This document shows positions 27,525 through 36,023 of a stretch of 64,000 nucleotides of DNA, piece by piece (the stretch's first letter is position 1; each line of letters begins with the position of its first letter). A program made the position numbers and the translations under genes. The DNA comes from a virus. Location of the stretch: IMG/VR virus record IMGVR_UViG_3300032294_002823; one strand, 5' to 3'. Under the pieces are notes generated by a model, which had not been told where the DNA came from, ran no database searches, and saw only the letters and a program-made list of their open reading frames with translations.

Positions 27525-27553
27525 TTGACAAACAACCAGAAAGTGTGTATATT
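27525..27553 (+). promoter_or_regulatory. Sigma70-type promoter
   Basis: TTGACA-N17-TATATT. Confidence 0.65.
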
Positions 27554-27578: not shown

Positions 27579-28424
27579 ATGTACCGTTTCTGGTTGTTGT
27601 TGTTTATTCTAGGATGTTCAGGTGAACGAACGATACTGGCACCAGTATATCCCCTCCCACCGGCTCCCGCGCCCATTTCATATACACACCCGAAATTCAT
27701 CCGCGACACCGTGTGGAATGAGGGTAACGTTGGCATGACGTTGAACTATGAATCAGACCTTGCAACTAACGGTGCTTTTCGTAAATCTTGGACTTATACA
27801 GAAGTTACGGACACTATGGAAGCAGTCCGAAAAGGTTGGAAGGCTCAGCGATTTGAGACACGGGCAGGTGATTGTTATGGTACTGATTGCTCAAGAAATC
27901 CTGTGTTTGAAAGAAATGAGTTTGCTCAGGCACACAATGAGAATCTAGAAGGGGACGAATATTGGTATGCGTGGTCCTTCTACGTTCCTGCTAATATTCC
28001 ACAAGCAGACTGGGTGTACTATGGACAGTTTCAACAACATCATAATTATGATTCCATTTGGATGTTTATGAAACGTGCTGGACAACCTTTCTGTGCCGTC
28101 TTTGATTGGGCACGAAACAAAAATTGGAGTTGCACAAACAAAAATCATCAACTAATAGATGACTATTCATTTGCTGGGCGATGGCATGATATTCTAGTAC
28201 ATGCCAAATGGACTACAAAAAATGACGGATTTACACGGATTTATGTGGATGGAAATTTAGTTGTAGATTATACTGGGTATACTAGAACAGTAGAAAATAG
28301 TGGTGTGTATTTTAAATACGGGATTTATCGGCCTGGTTCTTCCGCTAATACAGTAGTATATTATGATGAAATTCGTCGCGGAAAAACGCGGGAAGCGGTA
28401 GATATTCGACTCTTAGAAAAATAA
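27579..28424 (+). CDS. Lipoprotein, polysaccharide lyase-like beta-jelly-roll
   Basis: ILGC lipobox; ERNE, EYWYAWSFYVP, QF, G-WHD, YFKYGIYR, VYYDE. Confidence 0.8.
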   Translation: MYRFWLLLFILGCSGERTILAPVYPLPPAPAPISYTHPKFIRDTVWNEGNVGMTLNYESDLATNGAFRKSWTYTEVTDTMEAVRKGWKAQRFETRAGDCYGTDCSRNPVFERNEFAQAHNENLEGDEYWYAWSFYVPANIPQADWVYYGQFQQHHNYDSIWMFMKRAGQPFCAVFDWARNKNWSCTNKNHQLIDDYSFAGRWHDILVHAKWTTKNDGFTRIYVDGNLVVDYTGYTRTVENSGVYFKYGIYRPGSSANTVVYYDEIRRGKTREAVDIRLLEK

Positions 28425-28427
28425 GGA

Positions 28428-28498
28428 TATAAATACTTCTGTAGTAAAATTGAACCCTGTGAGTAGTCTTTTTATATAATACTAAACTCACGGGGTTT
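28428..28498 (+). promoter_or_regulatory. Late promoter followed by long 5' leader hairpin
   Basis: TATAAATA 28428-28435; AACCCTGTGAGT...ACTCACGGGGTT stem 28452-28498. Confidence 0.6.
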
Positions 28499-28520
28499 CC
28501 CGTACCTATAGGAGAAGAAC

Positions 28521-29003
28521 GTGATGCCTACATTTTTGGGTGTCATTATGTCTGGTTTATTAGTAACATTACCTGTGAATCAACAAAAGGAAATCTTTGT
28601 TGAGAAAGTGGAAAATAAAGTACAAATTGGCGCCATTGCAGGCAACAGAAATTTAGAGTTTGGCGTCAAAAACATTCTAGAAGAAGTATTGTTGGAAAAG
28701 GAGTATGGATTGAATCCTAATGCTCCATTGAAAGTGAAAGTGGACATCATCTATTTGGATGTGTTGACCACAAAGAAAAACATCTCAGTATTTCATAAGA
28801 ATAGTGAAGAAGTCGTTATACGAATGAAAGGTGTATTGACACAAAACGGAAAAAAGATAAAGGAAGTTGTCGTAGAAGAAGGTTCTGCGGAAATCTCCAT
28901 GTCAACACTCATCATTGATAATGGCGGTAAGTTCAATCAAACGAGCTTGAGTAATGCCTTGAAGAAGGCCAGCGTTGCTCTCATCACTAAACTTACGGAG
29001 TAA
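28521..29003 (+). CDS. Secreted alpha/beta protein (CsgG/LptE/TolB-N-like)
   Basis: Hydrophobic N-terminus; GVKNILEE and KFNQTSLSNALKKA resemble the CsgG-like protein at 32021. Confidence 0.55.
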   Translation: MMPTFLGVIMSGLLVTLPVNQQKEIFVEKVENKVQIGAIAGNRNLEFGVKNILEEVLLEKEYGLNPNAPLKVKVDIIYLDVLTTKKNISVFHKNSEEVVIRMKGVLTQNGKKIKEVVVEEGSAEISMSTLIIDNGGKFNQTSLSNALKKASVALITKLTE

Positions 29004-29004
29004 T

Positions 29005-30729
29005 ATGAGACACTTTTTAGCAGCAGTATTACTGCTTTCACCCATCTCACTCATGGCACAACCTGCCTTGTGGTGGGATCGTAACGTAATAACAACCGAT
29101 GTGAATGGTGGTCCCATCGCAAAAGATGACACCATTGCCGTTGAAGTGAAATTAAATCCCAATGGAACCACTATTCGTTCTGTATTCTTTGATTTTCAAC
29201 ATCAAATGAATGCCATATCATTGATTGATGTGCAACGAGATGTAGGTATTCCTGCCGCGGCAACATTTAGTTACACAAACAATTATTATCCCAATTGTCG
29301 TTTCAATCGTACCGCGAATAACACGACCAATAACGGGTGGAACAATTACATGAATGCCCAATATACATGTAATTCTACAACAGTTCCTCACCATGCCATT
29401 AATCGTATTCATGTAAGTGTGGCGAGTGCACAAAATCTTGCCCATGCCAGTTACATCAGAATGCGTTTCCGTGTCACCAACGTTGCTGCCGGATTCCCAT
29501 ACGATTCCATCTACATGAACTTTGCCATTGGGTACGATGCTGCCGGCGGCACCATGACCAATACAGTAAATACTCCTGATGGACACGGTGGGAAGGGTGT
29601 ATGGATACAACTTGCCCCAGGCGCCAATAATTTATTAACAGGTACAGTACGTCACGGTACCAATGTATCAACAGGATTACAAGGTATGATGCGTTTGTCC
29701 GTCACAGACACCGCAGCACAACCCACAGAAGTTACAAATGCAGTAGTAGGCGGTACGGGAAACTTTGGCTTTGGTCAGCAATTACAACCAACTACGTGGT
29801 ATAGAATGCGCTTGATGGTACCCGCGGATAGTATCGCGGCATTGAGTCGCGCCAGTGTCACGGTATCTGATTACACCGCTGCTGTGCAAGAATGGATTAC
29901 ACAAAATCTCGACAAGACATTTAAAAATCAAAATATTGACCGTGGTATCAAATATTGGGCAGCAGATGCCAATAATAACGGAGAATTTGATGGTGGCGAT
30001 TTGCAACGCATCTTCAATGCAGTGGCAGGGTTAGATACATTGTTGAAGGCGCCAGCAGGATGTTCAGGGACATGTATGGTGTCTGTCCCCACCATCCGCG
30101 GTGAAACCTATGACTCATTGGGATTTGCTTCATGGCGAACATTTACAAATCCTTCCTTCACACAACTCCAAACGAGTACAGTGGATCAAAACGTGACATT
30201 GAAATATGTGTTACGTGGTGATGTGAATTTATCACATTCATCACCCGCTGCGGCAGCACAACAAGCAGCATTTAGAATGGGTAATTTCATTGTCCCAGGG
30301 GCAAGTAGTATTGATGTCAACTTGAACAATGTCATTGTCACTGGCAATAAACTCAGTGTTCCATTCAATGTTGATACCAAGAATTTAAAATTGTCAGGAT
30401 TACAATTTGAAGTAAAATATGATCCTACAAAAGTAAAATTTGAAAAATTAGAAGTGAATACTCCAAGTTGGATTTCCTTCGTGAATGATGACAAGGGTGT
30501 GATTCGTTTTGGTGCACTTGACCGTGATTTTAAAAATTTCATGTCAGGCAATGCGTTGGTTCCCTTTAAATTGGAATTCAGTTCTGTGCAAGCAGGTGTG
30601 GATTTAAATTCAACTGTACAAATTCATCCCACGATGGATGCCGCAGACGATAAAGGTAAGCAAGTAGGAATCAATTTCAATACCACCACCATCAAGTTGA
30701 TTGGTGCCAACTTCTTTAAAAAGCCATGA
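29005..30729 (+). CDS. Secreted protein with cohesin-like domains and dockerin-like EF loops
   Basis: Signal peptide (LMA-Q); SGLQFEVKYDPTKVKF; AADANNNGEFDGGD and GDVN. Confidence 0.6.
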   Translation: MRHFLAAVLLLSPISLMAQPALWWDRNVITTDVNGGPIAKDDTIAVEVKLNPNGTTIRSVFFDFQHQMNAISLIDVQRDVGIPAAATFSYTNNYYPNCRFNRTANNTTNNGWNNYMNAQYTCNSTTVPHHAINRIHVSVASAQNLAHASYIRMRFRVTNVAAGFPYDSIYMNFAIGYDAAGGTMTNTVNTPDGHGGKGVWIQLAPGANNLLTGTVRHGTNVSTGLQGMMRLSVTDTAAQPTEVTNAVVGGTGNFGFGQQLQPTTWYRMRLMVPADSIAALSRASVTVSDYTAAVQEWITQNLDKTFKNQNIDRGIKYWAADANNNGEFDGGDLQRIFNAVAGLDTLLKAPAGCSGTCMVSVPTIRGETYDSLGFASWRTFTNPSFTQLQTSTVDQNVTLKYVLRGDVNLSHSSPAAAAQQAAFRMGNFIVPGASSIDVNLNNVIVTGNKLSVPFNVDTKNLKLSGLQFEVKYDPTKVKFEKLEVNTPSWISFVNDDKGVIRFGALDRDFKNFMSGNALVPFKLEFSSVQAGVDLNSTVQIHPTMDAADDKGKQVGINFNTTTIKLIGANFFKKP

Positions 30730-31118
30730 AAAAAATTCTCACGTATTCATTACTCGTAGCAACTGTTGGATGTAATCATACTGATTTCCCAACAACCCCC
30801 GTCGTCGTTGGCGGCGGGGAAACAGGATCAGAGGTTTCGTTGGGGGTTGCCTCAACCTTACTAAGTATATCCTCAATATCCAGTCCTGTCACACCTGGTC
30901 CGTTTACTATTGGAGTAAATGTCACCCCAGGCGCAACATATAGTTTTCAATTAACACACATCAATGGGGCAGTACTTCATAATCATGGCTTTACCGCAAC
31001 ACAAGCAAACATGAGTATTGCATTAGATTATTCTACAATTCCCGTAGGTGCCTATGATTTAATACTTATGGACAACACAGGTCGGTTATTGAAAGTAGCC
31101 GTTATCATTCAACGTTAA
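30726..31118 (+). CDS. Lipoprotein with Ig-like C-terminal domain
   Basis: VGC lipobox; LDYSTIPVGAYDLIL resembles FlgD-Ig/sorting-domain folds. Confidence 0.6.
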   Translation: MKKILTYSLLVATVGCNHTDFPTTPVVVGGGETGSEVSLGVASTLLSISSISSPVTPGPFTIGVNVTPGATYSFQLTHINGAVLHNHGFTATQANMSIALDYSTIPVGAYDLILMDNTGRLLKVAVIIQR

Positions 31119-31130
31119 CTAGGAGAACAC

Positions 31131-31418
31131 ATGTCAGAAGAATCAGGTGGAAGTGGATTAAAGAATGCCATCATTGGTTTAGTTACTATCATTGTAACAG
31201 CCATTGCCGGCGTTATCGGTAAGAACATCATGGGTGGAGATGAAGCAGCCGCTCCTGCGCCTGCCGCAGCAGCAGCCCCTGTCATCAATCTCAACCTCGA
31301 AAACAACAACACAGTAAAGGGTGGATCAGCTGGTGGCGCATCAGCTCCTGCTGCAGCACCCGCACCAAAGCCAGCACCTAAGAAGGATGACTGGGCAAAA
31401 GCTGAACCTAAGTGGTAA
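31131..31418 (+). CDS. Single-TM Ala/Pro-rich protein
   Basis: TM followed by APAPAAAAAP low-complexity segment. Confidence 0.75.
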   Translation: MSEESGGSGLKNAIIGLVTIIVTAIAGVIGKNIMGGDEAAAPAPAAAAAPVINLNLENNNTVKGGSAGGASAPAAAPAPKPAPKKDDWAKAEPKW

Positions 31419-31424
31419 TTGATT

Positions 31425-31742
31425 ATGAAATCTGAGGAAATTAATCAAGAAAGTAAGTTTAGTCAATTACTCAATCAAACCATGTCCCGTCGTTGGGGCA
31501 TCACAGCCATCGTATTAACAACATTTCTATTCATTGCCATTGGTATTGCCATGGCCATTGAAAGTAAGTCTGTATTGGATCAAGAATGGAAGGAAATTCT
31601 TCTTCTTATGTTGGGCGCCTTTATCGGTAGTTACGGCAAGATTATTGACTACTGGTTCTCAGACACCGACAAGGACAAGATGTTAGTACAAAAGATGGAT
31701 GAAGAAGATGGCACATCACTTTCAAACACATTAGGTGGATAA
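31425..31742 (+). CDS. Two-TM membrane protein (holin-like)
   Basis: Two TMs; KEILLLMLGAFIGSYGKIIDYWF. Confidence 0.65.
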   Translation: MKSEEINQESKFSQLLNQTMSRRWGITAIVLTTFLFIAIGIAMAIESKSVLDQEWKEILLLMLGAFIGSYGKIIDYWFSDTDKDKMLVQKMDEEDGTSLSNTLGG

Positions 31743-32031
31743 CATGGACGCCAAGAAAGTACAACAAACAATTTTCAGTAAGTTTGCTGAAATCTTTAAA
31801 GATAGTAATCATTTCAATGAAAAGACCATCATTGGTTTCATGGCGTTTGCTGTCATGACATTGTATTCTGCCACTGATATCATCACAGGTATCTGGGGTA
31901 TCAAGTTGGAAATTCATGAATTTGTGTATAACTCATTCATGTACATCACCTTAGGCTCATTTGGTATTGCTGGGTTAGAAAAGTTCTCTCCCTCAACTGT
32001 GAAGAAGGTAGAATCCGCCCATGATGAATGA
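31735..32031 (+). CDS. Two-TM membrane protein (holin-like)
   Basis: NEKTIIGF TM ... ITLGSFGIAGLEK. Confidence 0.65.
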   Translation: MDNMDAKKVQQTIFSKFAEIFKDSNHFNEKTIIGFMAFAVMTLYSATDIITGIWGIKLEIHEFVYNSFMYITLGSFGIAGLEKFSPSTVKKVESAHDE

Positions 32032-32788
32032 AATTAAAGGTTTTATAAAAAATTTTAGTTTATTGATGTGGGCAGCAATCATCATCACAGCAATTGCAGT
32101 ATTTCCTGTTATTGTATCAGCCCAAGTAGTTGGATCAACTAAAACAGAAGAATATCGTGCATCTTTCGAAAAAAAGACAGACATCAGTGCTCTAATGGAT
32201 TATGATGGTCCAAAGATTCCTATTCAATTATTAAGTTTAGGTATCAGCGAAGAAGTATATGCCATGTATCCTGAATTGAAAGACAAGCGTGTAGGACTTG
32301 GCGTTACTAATATCGTTGTAGAATTCTTGGAAGAAACAAATCGTTTCACCTTCACGGAAGATAAGACAGAAATCAAGAATCGTATGGTGAAGCAGTTCCA
32401 AGCATCACAATCAGGTATCACTGAAAACAAGTTGGATGGTCGAGGCAAGATTAAGTTGGCACGTTATTTTGCCTATATCGAAGTATATGATTTCTCAGTC
32501 TCAGAAGATGAAACTGTGAATTTGAAGGATGGTATTAAAAACAAAGTTGTGACGCGCCTAGGTCTTCAAGTAAAATTTGTGGACGCTGAAACAGGTGAAT
32601 ATTTCACAGGTTCAGGATTAGGAACTGCCACAACGGTGCGTGAATTAACGCTGATGAATGATGATAACTTTAGCGATGTGAAGTTCAATCAAAGTACCAT
32701 CGGTACATCAACCAAGAAGGCATTGGAAGATGCATCAGCGAAAATTCTAACTCGTATGATTAAGAAAGGCCTCTTTAAAGGTGAGTGA
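32021..32788 (+). CDS. CsgG/HfaB-like curli assembly/transport protein
   Basis: Signal peptide; YDGPKIPI, GLGV-NI--E-L--TNRF, LQVKFVDAETGE---GSG-G. Confidence 0.7.
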   Translation: MMNEIKGFIKNFSLLMWAAIIITAIAVFPVIVSAQVVGSTKTEEYRASFEKKTDISALMDYDGPKIPIQLLSLGISEEVYAMYPELKDKRVGLGVTNIVVEFLEETNRFTFTEDKTEIKNRMVKQFQASQSGITENKLDGRGKIKLARYFAYIEVYDFSVSEDETVNLKDGIKNKVVTRLGLQVKFVDAETGEYFTGSGLGTATTVRELTLMNDDNFSDVKFNQSTIGTSTKKALEDASAKILTRMIKKGLFKGE

Positions 32789-32791
32789 ACT

Positions 32792-33028
32792 ATGGACCCG
32801 TTTATAGGTGAAATTCGATTACTGCCATTTGCATATTGTCCAGCTGATTGGCATGTGTGTGATGGTAGTAGATTACCAGTACAACAGTATCAAGCATTAT
32901 ATTCCTTATTAGGTGACCGATTTGGTCCTTATGATGGGGTGAAAACATTTGCGTTGCCGAAAATGGATGCACCTGCAAATATGAAATATTGCATTGCCTT
33001 AGTCGGCATTTATCCCCCAAGAGATTGA
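32792..33028 (+). CDS. Stand-alone phage tail collar domain protein
   Basis: DPFIGEIRL...CDG--L---QYQALYSLLG-R-G-DG--TFALP...CIAL-GIYP. Confidence 0.85.
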   Translation: MDPFIGEIRLLPFAYCPADWHVCDGSRLPVQQYQALYSLLGDRFGPYDGVKTFALPKMDAPANMKYCIALVGIYPPRD

Positions 33029-33029
33029 T

Positions 33030-33647
33030 ATGAAAAAATTGTTATTGTTGCTGTGTGCCTGTACCTTCCCCGTACAGGCACAGGATACGGTTCGGGTGAA
33101 GCATAGCAATTATGACGCTGTGTTTTCCAAGAGTAAAAAGTATCCCGTGTTAGTTGAATGGTGGGTGACCACAAAGAAAATTCAATGCACAAATCCTGTA
33201 AAACGAAACGATAAGTTTCTCCCTGATCCCGCACTCCCAGTAGATAGCGATATCAGTGACGATTACGTGGGGTCAGGATTTGATAGAGGACATTTATCTC
33301 CTGCCGCAGACAATGTATGTAATGGTCCTGTCATCATGGCAGAGAGCTTCTATTTCACAAACATGGCACCTCAATATCCCGGATTGAATCGTGGGCAATG
33401 GAAAGCCTTGGAAGAACATATCCGTAAATTAGCGTTAACACATGATAGTGTGTTTGTGCAAGCAGGTTGTGTGGGTGTTCGTCAACAAATTAAACGTGTT
33501 GCTGTTCCTACACATTGCTGGAAAATTGTGGAAGTTCGTGCCACAAAAGAAGTCACCGCCTATGTGTTTGAAAATGTTCCTGTGAAAACTCAATCCATTA
33601 CATCACATATCGTATCTAAGGATAGTGTGATGAAAATTAGAAAATGA
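33030..33647 (+). CDS. Secreted DNA/RNA non-specific endonuclease (NucA-like)
   Basis: Signal peptide; DRGHL-PAAD; ESFYFTNM-PQ---LNRG-W--LE. Confidence 0.92.
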   Translation: MKKLLLLLCACTFPVQAQDTVRVKHSNYDAVFSKSKKYPVLVEWWVTTKKIQCTNPVKRNDKFLPDPALPVDSDISDDYVGSGFDRGHLSPAADNVCNGPVIMAESFYFTNMAPQYPGLNRGQWKALEEHIRKLALTHDSVFVQAGCVGVRQQIKRVAVPTHCWKIVEVRATKEVTAYVFENVPVKTQSITSHIVSKDSVMKIRK

Positions 33648-35179
33648 AAAAATTTCTATTAGTGGCATTGTTATGCCTATTACCCGTCAAGGTTGATGCT
33701 CAAGTTGTTGTACAAACTTGGTTGGATCCTTGTACGGGTGTAGCACAAACCGCAACGTTCCCATTGGGTAATGTTGGGGTAACAGTGGTATTTCGAAATC
33801 AAGCCAAAGTGTTCACGGCACAGCAGGCAGCTGCTGGTGAATTAATGACATGGATTAATCAATTAATTATGAGTACTCCATGTCCCGTTACAAACAATCC
33901 TGTTGTACAACAAGCCGCCACACAGGCAGCAACACAAGCCGCTGCGGCGGCTGCTACAGCAGCGGCAAGTGCTGCAGCATCAAGTGCGGCCTCATCGGCG
34001 GCTTCGAGTGCCGCATCTAGTGCAGCGTCATCGGCAGCATCAAGTGCGGCATCAGGAGCGGCAAGTAGCTCTGCTAGTTCTGCTGCCTCAGGCGCCGCAT
34101 CAAGTGCCGCAACTTCAGCAGCACCTACAGCACCGCCCCCAACTCCGGCGGCACCTAAGCCTGACGCTCCGGCACCTAGTAGCTCATCATCAGGTGGTTC
34201 TTCGTCAAGTAGTTCATCATCAAGCAGTTCCAGTAGTTCAAGTGGTGAAACCAAGACGGAAACCAAAGCAGAGGCAAAGTCAGAAAGTAGTTCAGAGAGT
34301 AAATCAGAAAGCAAGTCAGAAAGTAAATCCGAAGAAAGCAAATCGGAAAGTAAATCGGAAGAAAAATCCGAAGAGAAAAAAGAAGAAAAGAAAGAAGATA
34401 AAAAGGATGAAAAGAAAAAGAATGAGGCACGGGTCAATCCTCTTATGGTGGCATCCGACTTAACCACAGGACAAGACCCCACGGGTGGTATATCACAAAT
34501 TATTACTGTGGGTGTCTCGCAATCCTCATTGGCAGGGGACAAGAGTTATGGTGCCACCACGATGTTGTGGTCTACATTAGACCAAGGTGCCTTGTCATTG
34601 TCCTATACCAAGATGAGTTTCAAAAAAGGAAAATTAACCACGATTCATTCATTTGGTAGTACCAGTGCCTATTTAAAAGGTACATTGATGCAAATGACGG
34701 GGTATACTTGGGTGAAACCCAATCCTAAATATGGTGTATATGGTGTCAGTTTAGGTGCCATTGGATTGTTCATACCCAATGGACAACGTAATGTCGTCAC
34801 GGATAGTACAGAAATTCGTCGTATTTTCTTTGATAAATATCAAGTACCATTAACCTATATGCCTGATAGTTTAGTTGTACAGACACATGGGTATAATGCA
34901 AGTTGGGCAACATCGGCAGTGGCATTTTGGATGCATCCACCCATCATCATAAATCCTCGGGTAACAGTCACCCCGCAAGTATTTTTAATGGGCAGTCCTG
35001 TGGCATATAGTTCCTTGACAGGACTCACAACAAACACAGATGTTAGCATGATGTTAGGTAGTGGGTGGGATTATAAATTGTCACGCCGCTTTGGTGTGAC
35101 AGCAGCACATCGCGTCATGATTACACCTAAACAAAAACCTCTAAACTTCTTACTGATTGGCTCACGGGTAACGTTATGA
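33644..35179 (+). CDS. Secreted protein with Ala/Ser/Glu/Lys low-complexity linker and putative C-terminal beta-barrel
   Basis: Signal peptide (VDA-Q); (SSAA)n, poly-Ser and (SESK)n tracts; amphipathic beta strands to the C-terminus. Confidence 0.65.
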   Translation: MKKFLLVALLCLLPVKVDAQVVVQTWLDPCTGVAQTATFPLGNVGVTVVFRNQAKVFTAQQAAAGELMTWINQLIMSTPCPVTNNPVVQQAATQAATQAAAAAATAAASAAASSAASSAASSAASSAASSAASSAASGAASSSASSAASGAASSAATSAAPTAPPPTPAAPKPDAPAPSSSSSGGSSSSSSSSSSSSSSSGETKTETKAEAKSESSSESKSESKSESKSEESKSESKSEEKSEEKKEEKKEDKKDEKKKNEARVNPLMVASDLTTGQDPTGGISQIITVGVSQSSLAGDKSYGATTMLWSTLDQGALSLSYTKMSFKKGKLTTIHSFGSTSAYLKGTLMQMTGYTWVKPNPKYGVYGVSLGAIGLFIPNGQRNVVTDSTEIRRIFFDKYQVPLTYMPDSLVVQTHGYNASWATSAVAFWMHPPIIINPRVTVTPQVFLMGSPVAYSSLTGLTTNTDVSMMLGSGWDYKLSRRFGVTAAHRVMITPKQKPLNFLLIGSRVTL

Positions 35180-35952
35180 TTTCTGAAAAAACATTAATAG
35201 AACAAAGTGCATTTTTCGCAAACCTTAGTAGTTGTGTATATAAAGATTTAGCCTTCATGCGTGTGAACTTTGAAGGGTTTAAAGTTGTGTATCATGGTCA
35301 TAAAGGTGCCGACGCTTTCACATTGGAAGATGATAACAATTTCATCGTTGCCTGTCGTGGCACAGAAGTAAAACAATTCTCTGATGTGAAAGCCGATTTA
35401 AGTATTTCCAAAACCACAGTGGCGCATGGTAAATTACATATTGGGTTCAATCATTATGTTGATAAAATTTGGCAACCCATCATGTCACTCGCCCAACACA
35501 CGCAGAAAAAAGTTTGGTTCACAGGACATAGTTTAGGTGCCGCAATGGCTACCATTATGGCGTATCGGTTCGCCACAGATGACATACTCCCAAACCCAGC
35601 AGGATTATTCACATATGGAAGTCCTCGTGTGGGAAATCGTACATTCATTAATTACTTCAATACATTACCTTTCCCACATCATCGGTGGGTGAATGATGGT
35701 GATATTGTCACGAAGATTCCCTTTGCTCCGTGGTTCTACCACTGTGGTACAATGCATCATATTGATGAATCAGGATATGTCACACCCTTTTACGAAAAGG
35801 CATCATTGGGATATCGGATTATGCGTGTGATAAAGAGTCGCGGTGTGTTTCGCATGTTATGGCAAGATACTCAGGATCATAGTTCCGAATTATATCGAAA
35901 TTATCTTGCTCTCGCAGAAAAGTTCCCCATCATGGAGAATTCCACTCTGTAG
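35176..35952 (+). CDS. Lipase class 3
   Basis: RGT, H-GF, TGHSLGAA, TYGSPRVGN, DIVTKIP. Confidence 0.92.
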   Translation: MISEKTLIEQSAFFANLSSCVYKDLAFMRVNFEGFKVVYHGHKGADAFTLEDDNNFIVACRGTEVKQFSDVKADLSISKTTVAHGKLHIGFNHYVDKIWQPIMSLAQHTQKKVWFTGHSLGAAMATIMAYRFATDDILPNPAGLFTYGSPRVGNRTFINYFNTLPFPHHRWVNDGDIVTKIPFAPWFYHCGTMHHIDESGYVTPFYEKASLGYRIMRVIKSRGVFRMLWQDTQDHSSELYRNYLALAEKFPIMENSTL

Positions 35953-35960
35953 AGATGCTG

Positions 35961-36023
35961 TAAGTTGTTGATTTATAAGCACTTAGACAGGGACTTGACA
36001 AATGGTCCCTGTCGTGCTATATT
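35961..36023 (+). promoter_or_regulatory. Inverted repeat plus early promoter element
   Basis: TAAGT...ACTTA, then TTGACA(35995)-N17-TATATT; -35 box flanked by GACAGGGAC/GTCCCTGTC. Confidence 0.75.

Follow-up and report, generated by a model that had tools for sequence, protein, structure and literature searches.

What is the function of a row of exported envelope proteins that is inherited together by T4-like phages with otherwise very different genomes? The question is raised by a 64,000-nucleotide stretch of DNA (the window; IMG/VR virus record IMGVR_UViG_3300032294_002823), part of an uncultured T4-like phage that also codes for a gp61-type primase, ribonucleotide reductase, a tryptophan halogenase and radical SAM proteins. 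On its plus strand, positions 28524-35952 hold eleven open reading frames (ORFs) that overlap or abut, with gaps between neighbours of -11 to +12 nucleotides (nt), and export signals are predicted in nine of the eleven products, the tail-collar protein and the lipase having none. The original prediction for this locus, made from the sequence alone, had recognized the eleven tightly coupled genes and the signal peptides, lipoboxes or transmembrane segments of most of their products, and had read the set as an outer-membrane assembly or export apparatus. Here we report that a core of six or seven of these genes is conserved among related phages and is repeatedly linked to an endolysin gene, a linkage that favours a role in envelope breakdown. 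The genes of the module are the following.

28524-29003, plus strand: A, an exported protein of 159 amino acids (aa), a short paralogue of G with a putative CsgG/LptE-like alpha/beta fold
29005-30729, plus strand: Coh, a secreted 574-aa protein with an A|Q site, a C-terminal cohesin-like domain and one EF-hand/dockerin-like loop
30726-31118, plus strand: Lipo, a 130-aa lipoprotein with a lipobox and an invariant C16
31131-31418, plus strand: TM1, 95 aa, with one membrane helix by hydropathy and an Ala/Pro-rich tail
31419-31742, plus strand: TM2, 107 aa, with two membrane helices by hydropathy and an invariant charged tail (alignment A7)
31735-32031, plus strand: TM3, 98 aa, apparently with two hydrophobic helices, judged by eye and below the hydropathy threshold
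32021-32788, plus strand: G, a 255-aa CsgG-fold protein cleaved at SA|Q by prediction (signal peptidase I type); no other module gene is as conserved
32792-33028, plus strand: a stand-alone tail-collar domain protein of 78 aa without a signal (PF07484, E 4.3e-19)
33030-33647, plus strand: a secreted non-specific DNA/RNA endonuclease with an A|Q site (PF01223, E 1.3e-39; 136.6 bits against a cut-off of 23)
33644-35179, plus strand: the barrel protein, 511 aa, with a signal peptide, a head, a linker and a C-terminal outer-membrane beta-barrel
35176-35952, plus strand: a class 3 lipase without a signal peptide (PF01764, E 6.6e-23; 81.6 bits against a cut-off of 22)

The Pfam matches agree with the earlier naming of the collar protein, the secreted nuclease and the lipase. 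N-terminal signal peptides are found in A, Coh, G, the nuclease and the barrel protein, with cleavage at A|Q predicted in the last four.

Using G as the query, we retrieved 508 IMG/VR contigs and compared the best 80 of these 508 loci, with flanks of ±10 kb, together with the locus of Flavobacterium phage vB_FspM_immuto (L001; NC_055915), giving 81 loci. Homologues of G are present in all 81, those of Coh in 75, those of A and of the barrel protein in 72 each, and those of TM3, TM2 and TM1 in 59, 49 and 31, respectively (the TM1-like immuto protein gp016 matches 56 loci). The core of the module is A, Coh, TM1-TM3, G and the barrel protein, and its order is usually kept. Outside this core, Lipo (24 loci), the lipase (18), the nuclease (14) and the tail collar (2) are clade-specific variable inserts. 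The expectation that the genes recur together in other genomes holds for A, Coh, G and the barrel protein, whereas the idea that all eleven form one apparatus is not supported by the comparison. Across loci the identity of G is 69-100%, while that of Coh and the barrel protein falls to 25-36%.

The sole cultured carrier that we found is immuto, in which the module occupies gp012-gp019 and is annotated as hypothetical or cohesin-domain proteins only. Its nuclease, cohesin protein, G (56-58%) and A are recognizable by homology, whereas gp016 (TM1-like) and gp018 (barrel-like) were matched to window genes by position and N-terminal motifs only; for TM1 and gp016 the likeness was read from the sequences side by side, with no BLAST match at E<=0.01. 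The immuto module differs in having A last in the order, a separate lectin gene, and Bacteroidia-type expression signals without Shine-Dalgarno sites. A search of 50,697 phage records returned no match to the module DNA or to the barrel protein, NCBIfam held no family for any module protein, and we found no paper describing this gene set.

The strongest functional clue to the module is its repeated linkage, in varied arrangements, to a GH19 endolysin gene (PF00182, E 1e-7). In 42 of the 80 related loci a co-directional GH19 gene lies no more than 1.8 kb from the module: directly upstream of A on the same strand in 25 (62-209 nt away) and downstream of the module in 17 more (30-1714 nt), with arrangements that differ between clades. 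In a genome of 170 kb, a distance of 2 kb or less would arise by chance in about 6% of cases. In some loci (e.g. L063, where the barrel gene is followed by a lectin gene and then by the GH19 gene) the endolysin has, by eye, a peptidoglycan-binding-like N-terminus. Among the several roles that the original prediction listed for the block, non-canonical lysis gains most from this result.

Comparison of two near-complete genomes that both carry the module, G304 (178 kb, of the window's clade) and G305 (169 kb, of a sister clade), points in the same direction. Only 36 of 194 ORFs match between them, mostly at 26-37% identity; G (81%) heads the ranking, followed by a 199-aa GH19 endolysin-type protein (75%). 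Between the window and G305, 9 of 103 ORFs match, and six of these nine are module genes. The four-fold degenerate sites of G are saturated (0.30-0.41 identical) while the protein is 83-87% identical, which implies long purifying selection rather than recent transfer.

We tentatively propose, at somewhat short of even confidence, that the core is a lysis-associated envelope complex acting with the endolysin at the end of infection. The parts of the module are predicted to lie in the inner membrane, the periplasm and the outer membrane. TM2, and perhaps TM3 and TM1, would be in the inner membrane, TM2 having the build of a class II holin or of a holin partner. G and A would be cleaved by signal peptidase I and form soluble periplasmic CsgG-fold assemblies, not a membrane pore. 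The barrel protein would be inserted in the outer membrane, with its disulphide-bonded head reaching back into the periplasm on a long tether. Jointly, these core parts would control or perform the outer-envelope step of lysis in a spanin-like or lysis-timing role, and the Coh/lectin variants, Lipo, the nuclease, the lipase and the adjoining polysaccharide lyase would act on surface layers and released polymers. A lysis-regulating role has likewise been proposed for the CsgG/CsgF proteins of phage Melnitz (PMC9004378). Like phage lysis cassettes, the module is probably late-expressed, contains small membrane proteins with charged tails, combines inner- and outer-membrane parts and often adjoins an endolysin gene; it differs from them in its size of ~7 kb, its cohesin and lectin proteins, the unlinked endolysin of the window and its lack of homology to known holins or spanins.

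Several observations weigh against this proposal. There is no GH19 gene in the window, and in its lineage (G304) the endolysin lies 27-28 kb from the module, adjoined by the gene for a 198-aa coiled-coil protein that could itself be the spanin. No module protein matches a holin, a spanin or any PHROG lysis family. The cohesin, C-type lectin and type IX secretion system (T9SS) tail domains of Coh and its neighbours are suggestive of surface display, and what they would contribute to lysis is not obvious. Finally, late timing is read only from the T4-type late-promoter-like motif TATAAATA ahead of the window's module, and most clades lack this motif near the endolysin or the module.

The 198-aa protein begins with a hydrophobic segment, continues as a long coiled coil and ends in a membrane helix (L127:7580-8800, minus strand), a layout that makes it possibly spanin-like. 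Positions 1-264 of the window (plus strand) are the tail of the gene for this protein, which in G304 directly follows the GH19 gene.

The three small membrane proteins are the inner-membrane candidates of the proposed complex. That there are three, as first described, is clear from hydropathy for TM1 and TM2; TM3 falls below the threshold, and its helices were seen by eye. TM2 is holin-like in build, by features only: two helices separated by a short loop, together with the invariant charged tail, are the arrangement of a class II holin, and 35 columns are invariant in A7. It matches no holin family, and none of its 2147 relatives is functionally named. TM2 and TM3 are not similar, and we rejected the idea that they are paralogues. 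Long variants of TM2 (L040:7640-8350, L063:9421-9957 and similar) are extended by a presumably cytoplasmic tail in which DxDGDG repeats resemble calcium loops and a CxH...CxxC motif resembles a zinc ribbon. TM1, Lipo and the tethered barrel protein could form a bridge across the periplasm, and none of the three resembles Rz or Rz1.

The putative beta-barrel and the long flexible linker of the original prediction both proved real features of the barrel protein. Behind a signal peptide with an invariant Q at +1 comes a head of ~60 aa with invariant C30 and C80 (alignment A1), followed by a disordered low-complexity linker of ~180 aa rich in Ala/Ser/Pro/Glu/Lys and a C-terminal domain of 245 residues (267-511), which AlphaFold2 (AF2) modelled with a predicted local distance difference test score (pLDDT) of 70-88. 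This domain is a 12-stranded outer-membrane barrel that Foldseek and VIA matched to NalP (Z 23.8, 241 residues aligned), EspP (20.9), FapF (19.7) and AIDA-I (19.6), and also to KdgM (Z 20.9, root-mean-square deviation (rmsd) 1.7 Å over 166 residues). It thus has the 12-stranded C-terminal barrel of autotransporters (NalP 1UYN, EspP) and porins (KdgM, NanC), and shares with autotransporters the order of signal peptide, N-terminal domain, linker and barrel. It differs from them in that the "passenger" is only ~60 residues long with a disulphide pair, that the linker is disordered, and that neither Pfam nor NCBIfam gives an autotransporter beta-domain match at E<=0.1. The alignments to NalP and EspP begin at model residues 64-73, a region of pLDDT 45-67. 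All 79 relatives of the barrel domain are unnamed metagenome proteins, and the ESM Atlas yields weak porin-like leads only; phage-encoded barrels, including ones of the autotransporter type, do exist in BFVD. In the window, L011, L014 and L024 only, the barrel is interrupted by an insertion of ~40 residues with a short helix (residues ~385-425, window 34796-34918).

The main rival to a role in lysis is that the barrel protein together with G and A anchors or exports Coh and lectins, which would coat the infected cell and either mask its receptors or aggregate cells in a kind of "sibling capture"; masking could exclude superinfecting phages or shield progeny from debris. We regard this as possible though unlikely. 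It draws on the autotransporter layout of the barrel protein, and on Coh and the barrel protein being the most variable members of the core, as is expected of proteins in contact with the surface. It also draws on the domains of Coh. Cohesin is found in 11 of 26 Coh homologues (best E 5.9e-9) and Por_Secre_tail also in 11; the sister-clade proteins of L012, L036, L054 and L063 exceed the Pfam cut-off for the T9SS sorting domain PF18962, and our own hidden Markov model (HMM) finds this C-terminal domain (CTD) on Coh in 35 loci of sister clades (e.g. L012:9116-9355). Some Coh variants contain C-type lectin domains. Between the barrel gene and the endolysin gene of L063 is a secreted 479-aa protein (L063:12084-13523) with a C-type-lectin motif, the dockerin-like loop of Coh and a GDVNLSHSS motif. 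A cohesin domain and such a loop in the same protein could allow Coh to self-associate. There is also precedent, as T9SS cargo is encoded by the phage "Cryophage" (PMC7468147), and aggregation or exclusion has been proposed for the curli genes of pelagiphages (PMC7029224, PMC9599517).

Against this reading, the Coh of the window has neither a lectin domain nor a T9SS sorting domain, by Pfam, NCBIfam and our own HMM. Its match to Cohesin (PF00963; E 1.6e-4, 22.3 bits) is below the 24.1-bit cut-off, and its best lead against PDB profiles is the ScaB cohesin at E 0.063. The cohesin-like ends once ascribed to this protein reduce to the C-terminal one, by this sub-threshold match, the N-terminal end having none. 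Likewise, the dockerin-like calcium loops do not amount to a dockerin domain: there is one conserved EF-hand-like DxNxNGxxDxxD loop and a distant GDVN.SHS motif, and no dockerin family with two Ca-binding repeats in Coh or its 26 homologues, nor any PDB match. The invariant Cys pair of the barrel protein, with its members 50 residues apart, argues against threading of the head through a 12-stranded barrel, which suggests that the head remains periplasmic. Surface coating would, moreover, leave both the endolysin linkage and the top conservation of G unexplained.

Lipo, which had been correctly picked out as a lipoprotein, appears to be related to the variable tail of Coh. Its C-terminal half resembles the T9SS CTD of sister-clade Coh proteins (hhalign of A5/A6, 86.5% probability, E 4.5e-6), and no locus has both a separate Lipo and a Coh-fused CTD. 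The two arrangements look like the result of gene fission or fusion.

The CsgG-like pair of the original prediction is supported. The AF2 model of G (pLDDT 80) has CsgG chains as its best matches (Foldseek E 2e-7), with VIA Z scores of 13.8 for 4uv2_P (rmsd 2.7 Å, 170 residues aligned), 13.2 for 6lqh and 13.1 for 4uv3_A, followed by LptE, PelC, FlgT and the TolB N-domain at Z 8-11. Since PDB sequence-profile searches with G, A and Coh gave no meaningful matches, the link between G and CsgG in the PDB comes from fold comparison only. In Pfam, the window's G has no match at E<=0.1, PF03783 included, and its connection is transitive: of 41 aligned family members, 14 reach PF03783 and seven reach LpoB. 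ESM Atlas features of G read CsgG/HfaB, and the family has 6237 non-redundant members, many of them labelled CsgG by the Joint Genome Institute (JGI). A has a weak Lipoprotein_16 match (E 0.0014), and its profile aligns with that of G over their common FNQ...KK motif (hhalign, 95.6% probability, E 1.1e-8). Of the folds anticipated for the block, CsgG and the barrel are present in the models.

A second alternative is that G is an outer-membrane pore of the curli (type VIII) or another kind, exporting the nuclease or other cargo. This reading has in its favour the structural matches to CsgG over 170-197 residues, the PF03783 matches of family members, the JGI names, and the CsgG/CsgF operons known in pelagiphages (PMC7029224, PMC9004378, PMC9599517), but we consider it improbable. 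G has no lipobox; phage G proteins carry SA|Q, NA|Q or TA|Q sites of the signal peptidase I type, and in alignments the A|Q site falls at the position of the lipobox Cys, a residue that only distant bacterial relatives carry. Each CsgG subunit contributes two amphipathic transmembrane beta-hairpins (TM1 and TM2) to the CsgG barrel; their equivalents in G are 26 aa long with 6-9 charged residues, and the second is ~13 aa shorter than that of the CsgG of pelagiphage HTVC008M; judged at the sequence level, they are not membrane-compatible. Where CsgG has a constriction loop of Tyr/Asn/Phe residues, G has the invariant motif YPEL..K.VG.G. No CsgF, CsgE or curlin (CsgA/B) family was detected among the module proteins, in keeping with the absence of curlin repeats noted at the outset, the nuclease is missing from most loci, and G is only remotely related to the HTVC008M CsgG (78% probability, E 2e-5). 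In other words, G shares the alpha/beta fold of E. coli CsgG (4UV2, 4UV3, 6L7A; Z 13-13.8), yet differs from it in being unlipidated, in its short charged hairpins, in its loop motif and in lacking curli substrates, and it is probably not a curli channel. The outer-membrane apparatus of the original prediction is therefore retained as a co-inherited set of exported envelope proteins with CsgG folds and a true barrel, and is not supported as a CsgG-type pore.

What G might do instead is hinted at by its bacterial relatives, in which the domain is fused to a Peptidase_C14 caspase (P0201, P0224, P0228) or to a Ser/Thr kinase (P0206, P0233); such fusions are more in keeping with binding in the periplasm than with pore formation. 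Ring lipoproteins that work with outer-membrane barrels (PelC-PelB, LptE-LptD) offer a parallel, as they have a fold superfamily in common with G and A (Z 8-10) and pair a small alpha/beta protein with a barrel. They differ in that their small partners are lipoproteins, their barrels have 16 or 26 strands and their function is polymer export, and their homology to the module is at the level of the fold only.

Least probable of all is that the genes have no joint function and form a hypervariable island of unrelated exported accessory genes, as might be thought from the coming and going of the nuclease, lipase, collar and Lipo genes and from the hypervariable location of pelagimyophage curli genes (PMC7029224), since the order A-Coh-TM-G-barrel is kept in at least 70 loci and in immuto, the core persists between genomes with almost nothing else in common, and module genes overlap or abut.

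Returning to the proposed lysis complex, a bolder form of it holds that TM2, G, A and the tethered barrel protein are a previously unrecognised machine for breaching the envelope or timing lysis in very abundant aquatic T4-like phages, working both in Bacteroidia and in a host with sigma-70 and Shine-Dalgarno signals. The constraint on G would then come from its engaging a part of the envelope common to all these hosts, for instance peptidoglycan or the enzymes that synthesize it. We consider this extended claim doubtful, and offer it as speculation.

The nearest known systems are the CsgG/CsgF curli clusters of pelagiphages and of the OM43 phage Melnitz (PMC7029224, PMC9004378, PMC9599517). 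In both cases a block of exported envelope proteins surrounds a protein with the CsgG fold, occurs in aquatic phages (T4-like myophages and, among the pelagiphages, podophages), lies in a variable region, is abundant in metagenomes and has a putative function. The module described here differs in lacking CsgF, curlin, FecR and adenylate cyclase genes and in the remoteness of G from the HTVC008M protein; its partners are a short paralogue, a cohesin protein, small membrane proteins and a 12-stranded barrel.

We also considered that the module was copied from a bacterial operon, and rejected this for the genomes sampled. Distant CsgG-family relatives of G occur in 37 of 301 Bacteroidota genomes (best E 7e-18), or 36 without the seed metagenome-assembled genome (MAG), whose match to G is a binned phage contig, and 14 neighbourhoods (~±9 kb) held no homologue of the barrel protein, A or Coh.

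Carriers of the module fall into two groups by their expression signals. We compared the loci of the window's clade (L002-L009, L011, L014, L024 and L027) with the others among L012-L081, and G304 with G305. Shine-Dalgarno motifs precede 49% of starts in the window (background 10%) and 46% in G304 (background 6.5%), and the clade has 40 sigma-70-type promoters (TTGACA-N17-TATAWT) in 261 kb. In contrast, the other clades and immuto have Shine-Dalgarno motifs at 3-6% of starts, no sigma-70-type promoters and 42 Bacteroidia-type TTTG-N19-TAnnTTTG sites. This suggests that the module spans phages whose hosts read different signals. The window's host is probably not a typical member of the Bacteroidia, to judge from these signals. 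All four predicted signal peptidase I substrates of the window have Q at +1, the Q-rule of Bacteroidetes, which is valid in Ignavibacterium also (PMC5837995). Two binned contigs were found, in Sediminibacterium and Thiobacillus MAGs, and both belong to the clade without Shine-Dalgarno sites.

Three further features of the window lie at the edges of the block.

28428-28435, plus strand: TATAAATA, a T4-type late-promoter-like motif 88 nt upstream of the ATG of A
28455-28495, plus strand: an inverted repeat with 10-bp arms between TATAAATA and the first gene, read directly from the sequence
35995-36023, plus strand: a sigma-70-type promoter within an inverted repeat, closing the block on its downstream side; the window has 14 such copies

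The block had been described as late-expressed behind a promoter. The motif is indeed there, and late timing would hang on these eight nucleotides, which only the nearest relatives keep. The window shows no enrichment of TATAAATA: six copies were counted where 3.1 would be expected, and 11 of 100 shuffled sequences also had at least six. It occurs upstream of A in 7 of 71 loci against ~1.4 expected, and its placement at -82 to -92 is conserved only in the four closest relatives (L002, L003, L004, L014). A late promoter is rejected as a common feature of the module, and late expression would be suggested by the motif for the window's clade only. The inverted repeat may terminate transcription of the upstream lyase gene or form a hairpin in the 5' untranslated region.

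Strong TTGACA-N17-TATATT promoters, of which the window has 14 copies against 0.13 expected, flank the lyase gene and the block at 27525 and 35995. The first drives the gene for a lipoprotein polysaccharide lyase (27579-28424; PF14099, E 3e-31). This lyase gene, with its own sigma-70-type promoter, sits where many relatives have the endolysin, and it was seen at one other locus only.

What is new here is the endolysin linkage, the conservation rank of G, the split between clades in expression signals and the lack of a T9SS tail on the window's Coh. That G heads the ranking between two genomes whose shared proteins are mostly ~30% identical marks an unusual constraint. A cultured phage-host pair is available in immuto on Flavobacterium sp. 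LMO8, and the sigma-70 promoters and Shine-Dalgarno sites of the window's clade mean that its genes may express directly in standard laboratory hosts. To our knowledge, no mechanism of breaching the outer membrane has been established for the T4-like phages of Bacteroidota and related hosts, and a conserved, endolysin-linked module predicted to span the envelope provides a concrete candidate.

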